Source of the DNA: Escherichia phage vB_EcoM-ZQ3
Reading direction: 5' to 3' (one strand)
DNA: 64,000 nucleotides
Sequence record: MW630116.1
In this document: piece after piece, positions 18,522 through 30,240 of the stretch
Position numbering within the stretch: the stretch's first letter is position 1
Layout of the letters: every line of letters starts with the position of its first letter
Notes under the pieces: model-generated
The model's input: only the letters and a program-made list of their open reading frames with translations
Told to the model about the DNA's origin: nothing
Database searches by the model: none
Translations under genes and position numbers: made by a program

Positions 18522-19037
18522 TCACGGCCTCACATAAACATAGTTTCGTAATTGTTGAGCCCATTTGCTCCAATTTCCTACTATAGTTTTTGTATAAACC
18601 TTAGTAAGAGTTTTTTGTACTGGAGCCGGTGGAGGTTCTGTACCAGAGGCACTTCTAGAATCGCCTGATGAACTTTCTTCTTGGTAGTTATAAATCATTT
18701 CAACCGTATAACTAAACACTTTACGAAGATTCTGAGGAGCTCTCCACAAATATAACTGTGTGGATTCATCTTTTGGTAAATCATCCCATGAAGATGCGGT
18801 TTCAAAATCGTCATTTAATCGGTATTTCAATGCATCTGAAGAAAAGCTAAACACACTTTCATATGTTCCATATAAACGATTACCATCTACCGTAATGCCT
18901 TGTGTCGGTTCATAATCTGTTATATTTATTGACACTAAAGTTTCGGTTGTTTCTAACTGTGGAGTAAAAAGGACGTCAATAGACGCCCCTTCCATGTCTT
19001 CTCCTAAGTCGGTATTTAAAGGAAGTATATTAGCCAA
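18522..19037 (-). CDS. Hypothetical protein in the position of T4 gene 5.1
   Basis: 171-aa ORF between the endonuclease gene and 5.4; function unknown. Confidence 0.5.
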
Positions 19038-19893
19038 TTACTGAATTCTCCAATGGTGTAAATTTATAATCACATTTTTTCAATGCTTTTAAAATTGCGT
19101 TATAACTTACATCCGGTAGATTATGTTCAATTGCTTTTTCTCTAAACCATTTATATTTCTGCGGATGAGGTTTTCCCAAATCCTCCCAAAGTTTTTTGAC
19201 TTTTTCAATACTAATCCAAGGTTCAACTGATCTTAGTTTTTTATTTCTAGTATCTAATCTTGATTTTCTTATTAAAGGATTATTCCAGGATTTTTTCGTT
19301 CCTTCTATTTTTCCTGGATGATTAATTAATTTGTTTCTATATTCATCGGATTTCCATAAAGATTTGACAGTATTAGAAATACGAATTTTTAATGTGGGAT
19401 CATTTTCAAAAGCAGTTTTCATCGCATTACTCATTTTCTTTCGATATTCCGATTCCGAACATCTAAGTTTATTAATTTTTGAAATTTTTTCTGAAAATTC
19501 TTTTGTAGATTTTCCTTTTGCCAAAGCTTTAAGTTGAGTTTCTCGATACTCAGGATTAGACCACATTCGTTTTAAATCGTTTGAAGAAAATCCATCTCCA
19601 CCGTCTTTTATATTAACACACTGGCCTGTTTTTCTATATTCAGATATCCAAAATTTTTCTCTTTCATTTAAAACATCGAGTGTTGAAACGAATTCGATAA
19701 TTTCGAAATCTATAGCATAGCCTGGTTTGTTTTTAATCTTTTGTATATAATCCCCGCTTCCTACGTAATTATCATCCTCTAGATTAAAATATCTGGATTC
19801 ATGCTTTCCTATATATATTCGAACCAACCCCTTTGGGTTGGTTACTGTTGATTTATAAATGTAACGGAATTGTATGGTTTTGGATTTCTTCAT
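19030..19893 (-). CDS. Putative GIY-YIG homing endonuclease (seg-like) inserted between gene 5 and 5.1
   Basis: N-terminal FRYIYK...GLVRIYIGKH resembles the GIY-YIG motif; repeated W-x-[NS]-[PD]-EYR modules suggest DNA-binding repeats; AT-rich; own late promoter. Confidence 0.6.
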   Translation of the reverse strand: MKKSKTIQFRYIYKSTVTNPKGLVRIYIGKHESRYFNLEDDNYVGSGDYIQKIKNKPGYAIDFEIIEFVSTLDVLNEREKFWISEYRKTGQCVNIKDGGDGFSSNDLKRMWSNPEYRETQLKALAKGKSTKEFSEKISKINKLRCSESEYRKKMSNAMKTAFENDPTLKIRISNTVKSLWKSDEYRNKLINHPGKIEGTKKSWNNPLIRKSRLDTRNKKLRSVEPWISIEKVKKLWEDLGKPHPQKYKWFREKAIEHNLPDVSYNAILKALKKCDYKFTPLENSVIG

Positions 19894-19909: not shown

Positions 19910-19917
19910 TATTTATA
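19910..19917 (-). promoter_or_regulatory. Late promoter TATAAATA for the seg-like gene, overlapping the gene 5 stop codon
   Basis: Plus strand tatttata; 17 nt upstream of the endonuclease ATG. Confidence 0.45.
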
Positions 19918-21649
19918 ACCCGACATCCACACGGCTACCATCAATTGTGTATTGTCCTGAAGCTACTGAGCTCATTGTAGACATTGTTTCCGCCCAATCC
20001 CCAGCAACAGTCATATCAACATTACCATTAACAGTCCATTTAACGTTTCCGTTGACTGTGTAATCATGATTCCCTTCGACCTGAGTTTTAGCATCGCCTT
20101 TAACAAGAATATCTGCATTTCCGTCAACAACTATTTTGATATTACCCTTAACGTAAAGAGTTCCATCGCCTTCAACAGTTTTAGATTGGTTACCACGAAT
20201 AAAGATTGTATCATTGCCGTCTATTTGATGGAGGCGGTCTGCCATGTTATAATATATTTCATTAGCACCAACGTTAACAAGCTTATCGCCAGAAATCAAG
20301 AAGTTCCCATCGCCATTAGTGATGTCAAAAAGGTCTTCTACAGTTTTACGAGTACGTCGCCCAGACGGAGAAACTTCCTCATATGACCCTGTTGGATGAA
20401 CTAAGCGATAACGTTCATTACCTGGAGTATCGTCAAATTCTTGGATATGACCGCTTTCTGTTTCCATAGCATGAACGTATGGATACTCACCACGATAACT
20501 TGATTCAGGTTCTTTAAAAAGGATACGTGAATCTAACGGAACAGGAGGACCAGCTGGGTCTTCTGGATCGGTATTTCTAGTAACTAAATCGGCACCAACT
20601 CCTGGTGAAGGTGGTGTTTTAACAGGAACGCCATATGATTCCATGTTACCGGTTAAAATAATTGTTGTTACACGTGAAGCACGCCCTTTAGTCTGTTGGA
20701 ACCATAATGAATCACGTCCGGATTTGTATGCGGTTTTCCAATCACCTGTGGCCATTGCTTTAAGCATAGTATTGAATTTTGCTACACCACCAACGCCCAT
20801 CTGGAAGCACATGTTTTCTAATGCCATTTGGCGAGATCTGTTCATTTTAGCATAAACAGGACCTACTTTAGAATTAGAACGAATGTCTTTCTGCATCTTA
20901 GCAAGGTCCTTCTCAAATAACGCTGTTGCTTCTTCTAATGTAATAGTTCCCGGATTTCCTGTTACTTCACGCCCTACTTGATCAGATAACAATTTATTAA
21001 TTCGAGACATATCTCGGGTTTTTTCCATTACTATAAGATGTCCAATACCTACTGTAGGATACCCGAGATGGTCCCAATACACTTTATCACGAAGACCTTC
21101 GTCACGACGTAACATTTCTGTTATTGTAAAATTAGGGTCATCATCTTCTGGAATATTTGCTAAATCTGTATCGTCTGGGTTTATACCATAATCCAAGTTG
21201 TTATCTTGAATTACGTTAGAGTTCGAATAATAACCAGCTTCACCACCTTGGTTTAGTACGTTCGTATCATTACCTAAACGTCGCGGATACTGGCCTGTCG
21301 GGTCTGAAAAACCTTCAAGTCTATTAGGCTTTTCACGTACTATTCCGCCATATGTACCAAGTACAATCCCGTTTGTTTTCCATTTGTCTAAGAAATGACC
21401 ATATACTCGAGTTCCTTCAACAGGACCTGTAACAGAACCACCAATACCTGACATTGATGCAGACGTAATAGGTTGAATAACAGTCATCCATGGAAGTTTT
21501 TCTGTAGGAATACCTTGTACATCACCTTGTGTTCTCTGCGCCGGATGAAGACCAACGACTCGAACTCGAACTCGCCCTTGTTTTAATGGGTCCATTCTGT
21601 CCTCGACAACACCCACGAACCAATTAAGGCTACTGCTAATCATTTCCAT
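19913..21649 (-). CDS. 5: Baseplate hub / cell-puncturing protein gp5 with tail lysozyme domain
   Basis: 578 aa; lysozyme-like core (GYPTVGIGHLI...) and C-terminal beta-helix repeats as in T4 gp5. Confidence 0.9.
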   Translation of the reverse strand: MEMISSSLNWFVGVVEDRMDPLKQGRVRVRVVGLHPAQRTQGDVQGIPTEKLPWMTVIQPITSASMSGIGGSVTGPVEGTRVYGHFLDKWKTNGIVLGTYGGIVREKPNRLEGFSDPTGQYPRRLGNDTNVLNQGGEAGYYSNSNVIQDNNLDYGINPDDTDLANIPEDDDPNFTITEMLRRDEGLRDKVYWDHLGYPTVGIGHLIVMEKTRDMSRINKLLSDQVGREVTGNPGTITLEEATALFEKDLAKMQKDIRSNSKVGPVYAKMNRSRQMALENMCFQMGVGGVAKFNTMLKAMATGDWKTAYKSGRDSLWFQQTKGRASRVTTIILTGNMESYGVPVKTPPSPGVGADLVTRNTDPEDPAGPPVPLDSRILFKEPESSYRGEYPYVHAMETESGHIQEFDDTPGNERYRLVHPTGSYEEVSPSGRRTRKTVEDLFDITNGDGNFLISGDKLVNVGANEIYYNMADRLHQIDGNDTIFIRGNQSKTVEGDGTLYVKGNIKIVVDGNADILVKGDAKTQVEGNHDYTVNGNVKWTVNGNVDMTVAGDWAETMSTMSSVASGQYTIDGSRVDVGL

Positions 21650-27033: not shown

Positions 27034-27320
27034 TTCTTTATGCTAAAGTAAAATCTGTTGAGAATGGTTATGAAAGCGATCAGCAAGCAGCTAAAGCATT
27101 GGTCAATGATTACGGTATTTTGACTAACTTTGAAGTTGAAAAAGTTTACATCGACCGTTCATCTTCGCAGGTTAAATTACTCTGGGAAGACGGTAAATTT
27201 AATAGCGTGAATTTTGATTTCTTTATTGAAACAGAAAAAGGTCCTCTTGAATATGATATTTTCAAGAATCCTTTGAAATTACGTTGCATTGAATATAATT
27301 ACATTAATATGGTACGGTGA
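27030..27320 (+). CDS. Hypothetical protein
   Basis: 96 aa; ATGA overlap with the upstream gene. Confidence 0.45.
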   Translation: MILYAKVKSVENGYESDQQAAKALVNDYGILTNFEVEKVYIDRSSSQVKLLWEDGKFNSVNFDFFIETEKGPLEYDIFKNPLKLRCIEYNYINMVR

Positions 27321-27324
27321 GTAA

Positions 27325-27840
27325 ATGAATATTTGTTTAGGCAGTACAATTCCTAAGGGCTACGTAATTGATGTCACTACCTATGAAAATGATGGTGACA
27401 ACTATAAAACCAAAACATTGTTTGAAGTGGAAGAGCATGAGCTCCAACAGTTTAAATATCTCTTGAAGAAATTTAAGAGCCGTCATTCTAGCACTAAAGC
27501 CGAACGTTATTGCGGTAATACACCATTCAGTGATTGTTCGCTTTTAATCTATGAATACTTGGTTGAAGGACTGTTCTCAGACCAGCTTTATCCAGAATTC
27601 ATTAAAAAGGTCTTTGGTATCGAAGTTGACCTTGGTGACAAATCCGAAGAAGATGAAACACGTGTATTCGACCTATTCTTTGAGAGCGGAGATGAGATAT
27701 CTCAAGGACTTATTGATATTCTTGGCTATGCTTCTGAATACTATGATTACGATTTCTTGCGTGTAGTTGAACGTGTTGAATTCGCTTATATTGAAGAAGA
27801 AATTGTTTTGCCGACTGTTAAAATGATTGATTTGCTTTAA
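27325..27840 (+). CDS. Hypothetical acidic protein
   Basis: 171 aa; GTGAGTAA RBS-like sequence upstream. Confidence 0.5.
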   Translation: MNICLGSTIPKGYVIDVTTYENDGDNYKTKTLFEVEEHELQQFKYLLKKFKSRHSSTKAERYCGNTPFSDCSLLIYEYLVEGLFSDQLYPEFIKKVFGIEVDLGDKSEEDETRVFDLFFESGDEISQGLIDILGYASEYYDYDFLRVVERVEFAYIEEEIVLPTVKMIDLL

Positions 27841-27919
27841 GAATTATGTGTTATTATTAATTCATACCCTCTATTACCAAAGGTGCTCTAAAGTGCCTTT
27901 CATAATAGAAAGTTATTAA

Positions 27920-27994
27920 GGCCCTGTAGCTCAATGGGAGAGCTGTCAGCTCATAACTGATAGGTAGCTGGATCGAAACCAGCCAGGGTCACCA
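27920..27994 (+). tRNA. tRNA with CAU anticodon (Met, or Ile if lysidine-modified), CCA encoded
   Basis: Manual cloverleaf: acceptor GGCCCTG/CAGGGTC, D-stem GCTC/GAGC, anticodon loop CTCATAA, T-arm GCTGG-ATCGAAA-CCAGC, discriminator A, CCA. Confidence 0.8.
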
Positions 27995-28000
27995 AACAAA

Positions 28001-28072
28001 TGGTGCATCGTATAAAGGTTATTACGGGGAGCTGTTAACTCCTTTATCTTGGTTCGAGTCCAAGTGCGCCAG
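28001..28072 (+). tRNA. tRNA-Asn (GUU anticodon), no encoded CCA
   Basis: Acceptor TGGTGCA/TGCGCCA, anticodon stem GGGAG/CTCCT with loop CTGTTAA, T-arm CTTGG-TTCGAGT-CCAAG; 6 nt after the previous tRNA. Confidence 0.7.
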
Positions 28073-28117
28073 TAATTTAAACGAAGTAAATTAAGTGCTC
28101 TATCCAAATAATAAATA

Positions 28118-28136
28118 CTCCTATATTTTATAGGAG
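28118..28136 (+). promoter_or_regulatory. Hairpin sequestering the RBS of the downstream endonuclease gene
   Basis: Inverted repeat CTCCTATA-ttt-TATAGGAG; right arm is the SD 10 nt before the ATG at 28147. Confidence 0.5.
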
Positions 28137-28146
28137 ATAATTGGTA

Positions 28147-28812
28147 ATGAGCATTTGTAAACATTGTAATATGGAATTTGATATTTCTAATAAACCTAAA
28201 GGATGGATGGCTAACCACACTAGATGGTGTAAATCCAACCCTAAATTGGAATTGTATAAAGAAAGTTCTAAATCAGCCATTGCAGCAATGAATAAAGCAC
28301 GTATAGCTTCAGGTAATTTAAACCAGTATGTTGTATCTAAAAAGACTGGTGTCCCTGTAGTAATTTCGGAAGAGACTAGACAAAAATTGTCAGCCGCTTC
28401 ATTAGGTAGAGAACACTCTGAGGAATCTAGAATAAAAATATCTAATGCTCGGAAAAAATGGTTGAATGAAAACCCTGATAAACATCCTTGGAAGAAAAAT
28501 ACAAAATTTAAATCTGTGCCTTGTGAATTTTTGAAATCTAAATTAATAGAAAACGGAATTTCATTTATTGAAGAATACCAACCGGTTAAAAACCGAGCGT
28601 ATTGCACGGATATTGCTTTAATAGATAAAAAGATTATTATTGAAGTTAATGGAAACCAACATTACTCCAATCCTAAGAAAAAGATTTTGGCCCCTTATTA
28701 TAAAGAACGCCATGATATTATAAAATCATTAGGATGGGAAATATATGAACTTCATTATGCTGAAGTTTATAAAGAAGATATTGTAAATAATTTAATTGCC
28801 TCTATAGTGTAA
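28147..28812 (+). CDS. Putative free-standing homing endonuclease (N-terminal Cys/His motif, NUMOD3-like repeats, C-terminal Vsr/DUF559-like nuclease motif)
   Basis: CKHCN...HTRWC; ETRQKLSAASLGREHSEESRIKISNARKKW; C-terminal D..IIIEVNGNQHY..RHD...LGWEI; sits between tRNA genes and overlaps tRNA-Arg by 15 nt; no GIY-YIG motif. Confidence 0.6.
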   Translation: MSICKHCNMEFDISNKPKGWMANHTRWCKSNPKLELYKESSKSAIAAMNKARIASGNLNQYVVSKKTGVPVVISEETRQKLSAASLGREHSEESRIKISNARKKWLNENPDKHPWKKNTKFKSVPCEFLKSKLIENGISFIEEYQPVKNRAYCTDIALIDKKIIIEVNGNQHYSNPKKKILAPYYKERHDIIKSLGWEIYELHYAEVYKEDIVNNLIASIV

Positions 28813-28873
28813 TGGATAGCATATAATCGTTCTAAGGTTAATGGTGAGAGTTCAAATCTTTCTAGAGGCACCA
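28798..28873 (+). tRNA. tRNA-Arg (UCU anticodon), CCA encoded
   Basis: Acceptor GCCTCTA/TAGAGGC, D-stem GTGT/GCAT, anticodon loop GTTCTAA, T-arm GAGAG-TTCAAAT-CTTTC, discriminator A plus CCA. Confidence 0.8.
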
Positions 28874-28891
28874 ACTTTAAGTGAGGAAAAT

Positions 28892-29236
28892 ATGAAAGGC
28901 AATATTTATTTGGTAGTTCATGATTTAACGTTTTATTTTAACGAACAGGATACAGTTATTTCCGACCGGTTGATTAATTCGTTATATCAACACGCTGATT
29001 ACGTTTATTTTCAAAATGAATTCGGACATTGGAAGTTTCTTAAAAACCGTTCCGGGTTAACTAGTTTTGAATACTTTGACCGTAAAGACCTTTTAAACGA
29101 AATTCCATTACAACATCGGTTCCAGAAACGCGAATCACTATACTATTGTCGCCATATACCAAATGCTGAATGTGTTTATGAAGCGATTAATCTATGGCGT
29201 CGGCGTCGAGAGCAAATTGATGATATGCCAAAATAA
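28892..29236 (+). CDS. Hypothetical protein
   Basis: 114 aa from the ATG after GAGGAAAA immediately 3' of tRNA-Arg. Confidence 0.5.
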   Translation: MKGNIYLVVHDLTFYFNEQDTVISDRLINSLYQHADYVYFQNEFGHWKFLKNRSGLTSFEYFDRKDLLNEIPLQHRFQKRESLYYCRHIPNAECVYEAINLWRRRREQIDDMPK

Positions 29237-29546
29237 GAAGCCGGGTCGCTACCGGCAAGACGTCGGACTGATGTTCCCTGAGTAAGGATTGGTCTTAATA
29301 AATCTTTACGATTTGTTAATACCCCCTTACATCACAGCAGAAACGGCGCACAGAATTATCGATTCGAGGAAATATCTTTGCCGTAAGCCGAGTAGCGTTT
29401 TTGACGGAACGTTCGGATATGGTCGAGATATGGCCTTTTAAAAATATTGAGTAGCGTCAACTGCTTAATAACCGGGTTCGAATCCCGGCGTTTCGTACAA
29501 ACACTTACCTAGTAGGTGGAAACCCGACAAGGTTGCCGCAAGGCAT

Positions 29547-29575
29547 AGCCCCTTCCGAAAGGTTGGGGCTTTTTT
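29547..29575 (+). terminator. Rho-independent terminator
   Basis: AGCCCC...GGGGCT stem followed by TTTTT. Confidence 0.6.
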
Positions 29576-29576
29576 G

Positions 29577-29584
29577 TATAAATA
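29577..29584 (+). promoter_or_regulatory. Late promoter TATAAATA upstream of the 29620 internal-protein-like gene
   Basis: Exact consensus directly after the terminator, 35 nt upstream of the ATG. Confidence 0.5.
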
Positions 29585-29619
29585 TAGTAAACAATAAACC
29601 TACTTTCTAAGGACCATCA

Positions 29620-30240
29620 ATGTATACTTTTAATGAATTTTTAGCCGAAACGGAAGTAATCACCGAAGCCGGCGTACGTATGACAAAAGAGAAATGGCAA
29701 GCTGCTTACGATGCTATTTCTGGTACAAAAACTAGTACAGAGTTTTTCAAAAACGTTCAAGCCATGTACGGTATCGACACTTCTAGCCAAAAAGAATATT
29801 ACAGAGCTTCTAAAGCATTCAAAGATATTGTTAGTGGTGGTGTTTCTGCTAAATCGGGTTCGCCTAAAGTAAAACCTGCTCCTACCATTCCTAAACCTGC
29901 GACCCCTAAAGCAAAACCTGAGCCTAAGCCTGAAGTAAAAGCAACTCCTAAAGCTCCTGCTCTTAAGTTTGATACTTCTAGCCTGGAAAAAAAATATAAA
30001 CAACTATCTTCGCTTGTTCGTGATATTGAATCCGATACATCTTCACTCGTTCGTGAATTCAATATTCTTCGTAATGGCCAACATATCAACAACCTTGATA
30101 CTCCAGACCTTTATCGTCTTTATTTGACTATCGAAGGTTTGAAGTATACTCAACCACTTCACGATGCGATTAAAGAAAAACTTCGTCAGGCAGGTCGTTT
30201 GGCTGCTGACGCTGCTCAGTATGCAAAAACTCGTAAGTAA
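29620..30240 (+). CDS. Internal-protein-like gene with capsid-targeting-type N-terminus and Pro/Lys-rich linker
   Basis: MYTFNEFLAETE resembles the capsid-targeting peptide; low-complexity PKPATPKAKPEPKPEVKATPKAP region; 206 aa. Confidence 0.55.
   Translation: MYTFNEFLAETEVITEAGVRMTKEKWQAAYDAISGTKTSTEFFKNVQAMYGIDTSSQKEYYRASKAFKDIVSGGVSAKSGSPKVKPAPTIPKPATPKAKPEPKPEVKATPKAPALKFDTSSLEKKYKQLSSLVRDIESDTSSLVREFNILRNGQHINNLDTPDLYRLYLTIEGLKYTQPLHDAIKEKLRQAGRLAADAAQYAKTRK

Follow-up and report, generated by a model that had tools for sequence, protein, structure and literature searches.

A 221-aa open reading frame (ORF) lying between tRNA genes was analysed in a 64,000-nt stretch of Escherichia phage vB_EcoM-ZQ3 (MW630116.1; the whole stretch is called the window), a Mosigvirus that is an RB69/JS09-like T4-type coliphage. 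We consider it likely that this ORF encodes a free-standing homing endonuclease of the Vsr-like (EDxHD) type, carried in a mobile cassette that consists of tRNA-Asn, a leader, the nuclease gene and a divergent, overlapping tRNA-Arg(UCU) gene, and spread by the mechanism proposed below. The positions of the features are given in Table 1. A preliminary description drawn from the sequence alone had reported an endonuclease gene wedged between tRNA genes, and the ATG and stop coordinates agree with that report; the tRNA genes on either side are tRNA-Asn and tRNA-Arg(UCU), as called by ARAGORN. Its statement that the last 15 nt of the ORF are the 5' end of tRNA-Arg is exact: 28798-28812 belong to both, the last four codons of the ORF being tRNA positions 1-12 and the stop codon TAA being positions 13-15 of tRNA-Arg(UCU). 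In GenBank, these genes are named 'hypothetical protein' or 'HNH endonuclease', the latter a mis-annotation, and the record of phage Mizar mentions NUMOD3 and DUF559 matches.

The domains that had been read from the sequence were recovered in the Pfam scan and the homolog alignment. DUF559 (PF04480) was matched over residues 151-210 with a small margin (21.4 bits; cut-off, 20.6), and NUMOD3 scored just below its cut-off at residues 87-103 (18.9 versus 20.4 bits). A second NUMOD3-like repeat, SEETRQKLSAASLG, occupies residues 71-86, and the entire stretch is helical. RAP (PF08373) gave the best Pfam E-value of all but stayed below its cut-off (23.9 versus 24.2 bits), and some homologs carry a precomputed match to the same family. 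No NCBIfam match was obtained for the 221-aa protein. The N-terminal Cys/His motif proved to be well conserved, with C4, C7, H24 and C28 kept in 23 of the 24 homologs that possess this terminus. Among 5.8 billion proteins, 131 relatives were found, several of which are named 'very-short-patch-repair endonuclease' by their sources. The ratio of nonsynonymous to synonymous substitutions (dN/dS) between lineages was 0.06-0.20; therefore, the ORF is a real gene whose protein is maintained by selection.

In the structure comparison, the best match was the DNA homing endonuclease I-Bth0305I, with Vsr ranking below both I-Bth0305I and DUF559, and with mitoribosome RAP-domain and FASTK proteins also among the top matches. 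The catalytic C-terminal domain thus has a Vsr-like alpha/beta nuclease fold and is fused to an N-terminal NUMOD-type DNA-binding region, the arrangement expected of the EDxHD family. Searches of the PDB by sequence gave only chance matches with the single protein and none with a 28-sequence profile even at E <= 10, so the link to I-Bth0305I comes from structure comparison only. I-Bth0305I, the EDxHD prototype, has an N-terminal NUMOD, a C-terminal Vsr-like nuclease and an active site formed by Asp196, Asn208, His213 and Asp222, and the composite motif of the family is E...D...x...H...D (PMC3239194). In the alignment, E143, D155, E166, N168, G169, H172 and Y173 were invariant in 28 of 28 homologs, E127 was kept in 27 and D190, the candidate for the last Asp, in 19. 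The order and spacing of D155, N168 and H172 fit the Asp/Asn/His active site of I-Bth0305I. N168 seemed at first to be a lost catalytic residue, and I-Bth0305I also has Asn at that position. Together, these data support the assignment of the protein to the Vsr-like/EDxHD nucleases, an already recognised homing-endonuclease family. The authors who described this family also count the Hef endonucleases, free-standing enzymes of T4-related phages, among its members (PMC3239194, PMC2677866). A kinship of the present ORF to Hef would follow from the statement in PMC3239194 that Hef is Vsr-like; a permissive tblastn search with the nuclease domain found no Hef-annotated gene.

Judged by order and spacing, the protein would share with I-Bth0305I and its EDxHD relatives (Dassa 2009, Taylor 2011; PDB 3R3P) an active-site pattern of Asp and His with Asn filling the variable position. 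It has in common with them N-terminal NUMOD-type DNA binding followed by a C-terminal nuclease, and a phage-borne gene; with the free-standing members, it shares a hairpin that occludes the ribosome-binding site (RBS). Unlike I-Bth0305I, which has two NUMOD2/helix-turn-helix motifs, it carries NUMOD3-like repeats and a CCHC zinc finger, and its gene stands free in a tRNA operon rather than in a recA group I intron or split intein. Moreover, the target of I-Bth0305I is protein-coding, whereas the target proposed here is a tRNA gene, and the ORF shares its 3' end with a tRNA gene. Within this clade, conservation of the motif's last Asp is not strict, and no sequence-level match to 3R3P was found.

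Several other identities and gene models were rejected. The Vsr mismatch-repair endonuclease proper is a stand-alone protein of ~155 aa in which a His corresponds to Vsr H64, zinc occupies a structural site and aromatic residues intercalate; here, the nuclease follows a DNA-binding N-terminus of 104 aa, and Asn168 stands at the variable position. A GIY-YIG protein such as SegB, which the preliminary description had also set aside, is not supported, since no GIY-YIG family appeared in the Pfam scan and BLASTP against T4 SegB gave E > 2. The TTG start at 28141 was dropped for ATG 28147, which matches the MSICKHC N-terminus of all homologs and the spacing to the Shine-Dalgarno sequence (SD). A 159-aa ORF on the opposite strand (28128-28607) was regarded as a shadow, given that the plus frame has a dN/dS of 0.06-0.2 and homologs throughout.

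The ORF was found in about 9 of 813 phage genomes matching its flanks (~1%), and in 5 of 182 and 1 of 756 genomes in further related sets. The segment 27920-28892 is 99-100% identical between the window and the Tequatrovirus ELT1, whereas the flanking ORFs reach merely 83.5% and 70.9% identity. Within Mosigvirus too, the block is better conserved than its flanks, as seen in the comparison with Mizar. Sporadic presence at a fixed locus, together with near-identical copies in diverged backbones, is the pattern by which homing endonuclease genes are recognised. Instead of occurring in every relative without mobility, the gene is rare and its lateral transfer is evident. Homology of the window to LNA2 and 308Ecol101PP ends at 27995 and restarts at 28870. 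In Mosigviruses lacking the ORF, for example LNA2, whose flanks are 98-99.8% identical, tRNA(CAU) is followed by 3 nt and then by tRNA-Arg(UCU), and tRNA-Asn(GUU) is missing. Meanwhile, Salmonella phage SEA1 has a tRNA-Asn identical to that of the cassette, followed 6 nt later by a resident-type tRNA-Arg and no ORF.

Scarred, deleted and frameshifted derivatives, which by their sequences would be the products expected of a homing-endonuclease life cycle, were also found. DCP548 has a 79%-identical copy of the ORF followed by a chimeric tRNA-Arg, of which the 5' two-thirds are cassette-type and the T-arm and 3' acceptor strand resident-type, with the crossover in the T-arm. This tRNA-Arg is broken: its acceptor stem is unable to pair, and ARAGORN does not call it. 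In the deletion derivative G2285, tRNA-Asn, the promoter motif and part of the hairpin are kept, and the ORF, tRNA-Arg and most of the next gene are gone. PTE-Eco05 has a +1 frameshift in an A-run of the ORF, reflecting either decay or a sequencing error. In Escherichia phage AV109 (L015 2006-2163, window 28061 joined to 29475), the T-arm of tRNA-Asn is fused to the tRNA-like GGTTCGAATCC motif in the rnaC homolog, and the deletion took out the endonuclease gene, tRNA-Arg, the next ORF and rnaD. Considering the AV109 deletion and the DCP548 chimera, the data suggest that T-arm motifs are hotspots of recombination or breakage at this locus.

The tRNA-Arg(UCU) of the cassette is only about 60% identical to that of relatives lacking the ORF. 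Two classes of tRNA-Arg could be distinguished: a cassette or T4-like class with the D-arm GTGTAATGGATAGCA, and a resident class with the D-arm AGCTCAxTTGxATAGAGCA. The swap between the two was seen independently in three genera, between flanks 95-99% identical. In Mosigvirus, LNA2 represents the state without and the window the state with the ORF; in JD18-like Klebsiella phages, the order Arg(resident)-Leu-Thr of Roth01 is replaced by Leu'-ORF-Arg'-Thr in Shark; in Gaprivervirus, Met-Arg(resident) of P896 is replaced by Met'-ORF-Arg' in PSD2001. The sole recipient sequence replaced in all comparisons (the window, DCP548, Klebsiella and Gaprivervirus) is roughly nt 1-52 of the resident-type tRNA-Arg. 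On the double-strand-break repair model, in which the break lies inside the replaced tract, the target would therefore be situated in the first ~52 nt of the resident tRNA-Arg, and the cassette-type allele would be immune. No resident-type tRNA-Arg sequence is present in the window. From these sequence comparisons, the resident-type tRNA-Arg(UCU) is the likely cleavage target of the 221-aa nuclease.

The association with tRNA genes extends over the family. Fourteen homolog lineages with 28-83% identity to the window protein were surveyed, among them eight metagenomic phage contigs and phages of Providencia, Acinetobacter and Rhizobium; in one lineage, the similarity is confined to the nuclease domain. 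Thirteen of the 14 lie inside tRNA clusters, and the nearest tRNA gene is tRNA-Arg(UCU) in eight, either overlapped at the 3' end of the ORF or located 18-73 nt upstream. A random draw from the tRNAs within 2.5 kb would give 3 such cases (crude P ~6e-5 for eight or more, ignoring shared ancestry between lineages). A homolog of 37% identity likewise runs 15 nt into a tRNA, in its case a different one (anticodon CUA), and its stop codon again occupies tRNA positions 13-15. The '...[I/L]-V-stop' C-terminus is conserved among the homologs because tRNA positions U8, R9, G10, Y11 and A14 are conserved.

Suppressor-type tRNAs with a CUA anticodon were observed near homologs in Acinetobacter phage phi1_092060 (L007 52-126 and 489-725), accompanied there by an RF-1-domain gene, and in L019 (3113-3187), where the endonuclease ORF overlaps the CUA tRNA by 15 nt. 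These tRNAs may reflect stop-codon recoding in those phages. Additionally, further endonuclease-like ORFs often occur in homolog-bearing tRNA clusters (L016 1502-2155; L020, Rhizobium phage RHph_TM39, 4297-4839; L025 1762-2229; L026 5473-5949), comprising a NUMOD3 ORF, an annotated 'homing endonuclease' that ends 1 nt before tRNA-Met, and HNH ORFs. Hence, several mobile nuclease genes pile up in phage tRNA arrays.

In the leader of the ORF, the hairpin forms the core of a larger fold with an energy of -19.9 kcal/mol (z = -3.9 to -4.5); none of 200 shuffled sequences was as stable. An SD placed in the right arm of a hairpin had been proposed before, and GGAG indeed lies within TATAGGAG. The corresponding position holds a perfect TATAAATA motif in PSD2001, DCP548, both Klebsiella lineages, the Providencia and Acinetobacter phages and L017; there, the motif directly adjoins or forms part of the left arm of a fold whose pairing takes in the SD, the AUG or both. 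Equivalent leader structures were found in seven lineages (z from -3.0 to -5.7), with arm sequences that differ and a logic that is kept. Late-promoter unmasking is known for I-TevI-type hairpins, namely those of I-TevI, I-TevII, I-TevIII, Aeh1 mobE and segB: read-through transcripts of such genes are translationally silent, and late transcripts starting inside the hairpin are translatable (PMC2988022; PMC2330249). RBS hairpins were reported in 15 of 16 free-standing Vsr-like and GIY-YIG endonuclease genes (PMC2677866). By its sequence, the present ORF would likewise use a late promoter. A scan of 27300-29800 for sigma-70 promoters and terminators returned fewer promoter-like sites than in shuffles and no informative terminator.

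RNase P cuts at the mature 5' end of tRNAs, so processing of tRNA-Arg at 28798 would strip the ORF mRNA of its last four codons and its stop codon, and expression of the ORF would be affected accordingly. Earlier work on segB had already proposed a hairpin, and also a processing cut that separates the stop codon from the final sense codon (PMC2330249).

The niche resembling that of T4 segB, as the preliminary description put it, is in fact the identical slot: T4 segB sits between tRNA-Ile(CAU) and tRNA-Arg, and Mosigvirus p000v has a 76%-identical SegB ortholog in the same slot and no tRNA-Arg. The segB leaders (T4, L012 2400-2500, - strand; p000v, L003 2150-2250) align with window 28100-28150 over ATAAATACTCxTA...ATAGGAGA...ATG, and the left arm of the outer stem is missing from them. 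PSD2001 matches T4 exactly in the 3' half of the upstream tRNA (tRNA-Ile in T4) and in the spacer that follows. These alignments suggest that segB and this unrelated ORF have been exchanged within a common regulatory and tRNA setting; conceivably, the leaders could instead have become alike by convergence, with a late promoter, an anti-SD and an SD arising in each.

SegB targets tRNA genes and cuts many of them at the TpsiC/CCA end (PMC2330249). The present gene resembles it (Brok-Volchanskaya 2008, PMC2330249; Chihara 2026, PMC13096335) in its slot, in a homologous leader with a late-promoter-like motif and an SD hairpin, in a 3' end at the processing site of tRNA-Arg, in the co-transfer of neighbouring tRNA genes and in the association with tRNAs across many phages. 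The two proteins are unrelated and of opposite polarity, SegB having an N-terminal GIY-YIG nuclease and C-terminal DNA binding. Whereas SegB recognises a generic end of many tRNA genes and prefers tRNA-Asn, this clade is tied to tRNA-Arg(UCU); and whereas a gap of 5 nt separates the end of segB from tRNA-Arg, this ORF extends 15 nt into the tRNA gene.

Intronless homing with co-conversion is known in T-even phages for SegF/gene 56, SegG/gene 32 and MobE/nrdB, and unrelated endonucleases have been swapped at one site, Hef for MobE and SegH for MobC (PMC2988022). The cassette is similar in that the endonuclease gene lies beside its proposed target, the carrier copy would be protected by sequence differences, flanking markers are co-converted and different endonuclease families alternate at one locus. 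It is unlike those systems in that the protected copy is not a lightly polymorphic allele but a tRNA of the same anticodon, only ~60% identical and overlapping the endonuclease ORF, and in that one lineage (DCP548) had its tRNA destroyed. No report of a Vsr-like endonuclease in phage tRNA clusters was found in the literature searched. Each component has a precedent: free-standing EDxHD proteins in T4-type phages, the tRNA-carrying SegB, late-unmasked RBS hairpins and the alternation of endonucleases. New here are the specific link between the clade and tRNA-Arg(UCU), the fusion of the ORF to a replacement tRNA, and the slot and leader held in common with segB. Beyond the preliminary description, the analysis revealed the different tRNA-Arg allele, the inclusion of tRNA-Asn in the block, the late-promoter motif, the membership in the known EDxHD family and the earlier proposal of a hairpin and a stop-codon clash for segB.

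We propose the following mechanism. During mixed infection, the zinc finger and NUMOD3 helices would bind DNA, and the C-terminal nuclease would cut the genome of the co-infecting phage, most likely in the first ~50 nt of a resident-type tRNA-Arg(UCU) gene and probably as a dimer making a double-strand break, by analogy with I-Bth0305I. Repair by recombination from the carrier genome would copy the cassette in, deleting the resident tRNA-Arg and installing the cassette type, which is presumably uncleaved; decoding would be kept after the swap because the cassette-type tRNA-Arg has the same anticodon. On read-through transcripts of the tRNA operon, the leader would bury the SD and AUG and keep expression low. 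Translation would probably be freed only on late transcripts whose start lies in the hairpin's left arm, shortly after the TATAAATA-like motif, and RNase P processing at the tRNA-Arg 5' end would further limit nuclease expression.

Some observations weigh against this explanation. Domain support is marginal at the sequence level, with DUF559 only 0.8 bits above and NUMOD3 under the cut-off and an empty PDB profile search. The fifth EDxHD residue (D190) is kept in only 19 of 28 homologs, and the residues were equated with those of I-Bth0305I by order and spacing. DNA cleavage, the target and the type of break (nick or double-strand break) are predictions drawn from comparison. The window, like ELT1, has AATAAATA rather than TATAAATA, so the promoter of these two may be weaker. 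Moreover, TATAAATA is not enriched in the window (11 seen, 8.5 expected), and the late-promoter claim thus draws on positional conservation only. A resident-like tRNA-Arg(UCU) persists immediately upstream of the homolog in several distant lineages (L017 and the Rhizobium phage), indicating that the resident type is not always destroyed. Lineage L018 has no tRNA within 2.5 kb. In addition, the T-arm junctions of DCP548 and AV109 are also compatible with breaks made by a SegB-type enzyme.

This last point bears on an unlikely alternative, in which the ORF is a passenger gene with a weak or inactive nuclease and the cassette is spread by SegB-type breaks or by recombination between conserved tRNA motifs (trans-homing). 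The broad cutting of tRNA genes by SegB, the location of two rearrangement junctions in T-arms and the leader and slot common to segB and this ORF would agree with it. Trans-homing reportedly has a precedent in the defunct I-TevIII, mobilised by MobE. However, a dN/dS of 0.06-0.20 and catalytic residues invariant in 28 homologs are unexpected for a passenger, the carriers have no segB in the slot and no SegB ortholog lies near the slot in the window, and the tie to tRNA-Arg(UCU) across very different phages points to a specificity of the protein itself. That specificity might instead concern another site: a genuine homing endonuclease could recognise the junction or spacer after the CCA end of the upstream tRNA, or a generic tRNA feature, and the swap of tRNA-Arg would then be co-conversion. 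The unit starts 0-10 nt after a tRNA 3' CCA end in every lineage, the upstream neighbour in distant lineages is tRNA-Asn, Gly, Leu or Glu and not Arg, and resident-like tRNA-Arg genes survive beside some homologs. We nevertheless regard such a target as improbable, since the 5' ~52 nt of the resident-type tRNA-Arg are the only tract replaced in all four comparisons, the Klebsiella phages lose the resident tRNA-Arg even with a different upstream tRNA, and tRNA-Arg(UCU) is nearest far above chance.

It is very improbable that the protein is an RNA-processing or RNA-binding factor of the RAP/FASTK type acting on tRNA precursor transcripts rather than a mobile-element nuclease. The best Pfam E-value belongs to RAP (23.9 bits), proteins of this type are among the top structural matches and the gene is nearly always within tRNA operons, but the RAP score is below the Pfam cut-off, and structure comparison ranks a DNA homing endonuclease first. 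The zinc finger and NUMOD3 are DNA-binding modules typical of homing endonucleases. Furthermore, the gene is carried by ~1% of close relatives, has been transferred from genus to genus, undergoes decay or deletion with no compensation to be seen, and alternates at the same site with segB, a proven homing endonuclease gene.

With a homing endonuclease as the preferred reading, two unrelated families, the GIY-YIG SegB and the Vsr-like/EDxHD clade, would be specialised on phage tRNA clusters and compete for one slot behind one leader, and a family with one characterised member would gain a concrete candidate target, the resident-type tRNA-Arg(UCU). A second family that moves, swaps and sometimes destroys tRNA genes would help to explain why near-identical phages differ in their tRNA repertoires. 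Phage tRNA sets have been linked to escape from tRNA-cleaving defences in work on SegB and Septu (PMC13096335). We offer one extension only tentatively, as a possibility that we rate below even. The clade might represent a 'cleave-and-replace' element that occurs naturally and has specialised in phage tRNA-Arg(UCU) genes. It would destroy the resident allele and supply a divergent, uncleavable tRNA with an identical anticodon, tied to the nuclease gene through the 15-nt overlap. Maturation by RNase P and full translation would be mutually exclusive on each transcript, making expression self-limiting, and the element would be, with SegB, a main driver of the turnover of phage tRNA repertoires, perhaps affecting escape from tRNA-targeting host defences.

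Table 1. Features of the tRNA-Asn/tRNA-Arg cassette and its left border in the window
Feature	Position	Strand	Remarks
tRNA-Met/Ile(CAU)	27920..27994	+	ARAGORN; left homology anchor of the cassette
Polymorphic block	27996..28869	+	tRNA-Asn, leader, ORF and cassette-type tRNA-Arg; replaces a 3-nt spacer and the resident-type tRNA-Arg(UCU)
tRNA-Asn(GUU)	28001..28072	+	ARAGORN, Rfam; cassette cargo
Outer stem, left arm	28092..28100	+	Pairs with 28149-28157 (G of AUG and next 8 nt)
Late-promoter-like motif AATAAATA	28110..28117	+	One mismatch to the T4 late-promoter motif TATAAATA; directly abuts the hairpin
8-bp hairpin	28118..28136	+	CTCCTATA 28118-28125, loop TTT, TATAGGAG 28129-28136; SD GGAG 28133-28136 in the right arm
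Putative homing endonuclease gene, 221 aa	28147..28812	+	ATG 28147, stop 28810-28812
Protein layout			CCHC zinc finger, residues 1-30; helices and two NUMOD3-like repeats, ~34-108; Vsr-like/EDxHD nuclease, ~105-221
Catalytic core codons	28609..28662	+	D155 28609-28611, E166 28642-28644, N168 28648-28650, H172 28660-28662
tRNA-Arg(UCU), cassette-type	28798..28873	+	ARAGORN, Rfam; T4-like D-arm GTGTAATGGATAGCA

The three tRNA genes scored 59.4 (CAU), 53.6 (Asn) and 56.3 bits (Arg) in Rfam (gathering score, 29), and the search of 27800-29700 returned nothing else, the rnaC and rnaD homologs having no Rfam model. By position and similarity, tRNA(CAU) is the positional ortholog of T4 tRNA-Ile. Its sequence is the same in carriers and empty-site Mosigviruses and 100% identical in ELT1, and it differs from T4 tRNA-Ile. 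T4 tRNA-Ile, with its CAU anticodon, decodes Ile after modification of C34. The gene at 27920-27994 is labelled tRNA-Met by ARAGORN and in most GenBank records.

Downstream of the cassette, homologs of rnaD and rnaC (the T4 stable RNAs, species 2 and 1 RNA) are located at 29231-29579, with 91% identity to T4. Between tRNA-Arg and the rnaD homolog, Mosigviruses have a 114-aa ORF (28893-29236), which is strongly divergent among carriers (71-95% identity). It is missing in T4 and PSD2001, where tRNA-Arg abuts rnaD, and mostly deleted in G2285. Elsewhere in the window, a 287-aa GIY-YIG seg-like ORF (YIY...YIG) at 19030-19893 on the - strand, weakly similar to SegB (E 2e-5), directly adjoins a gp5-like baseplate hub lysozyme gene (19913-21649) and is probably another free-standing homing endonuclease gene.

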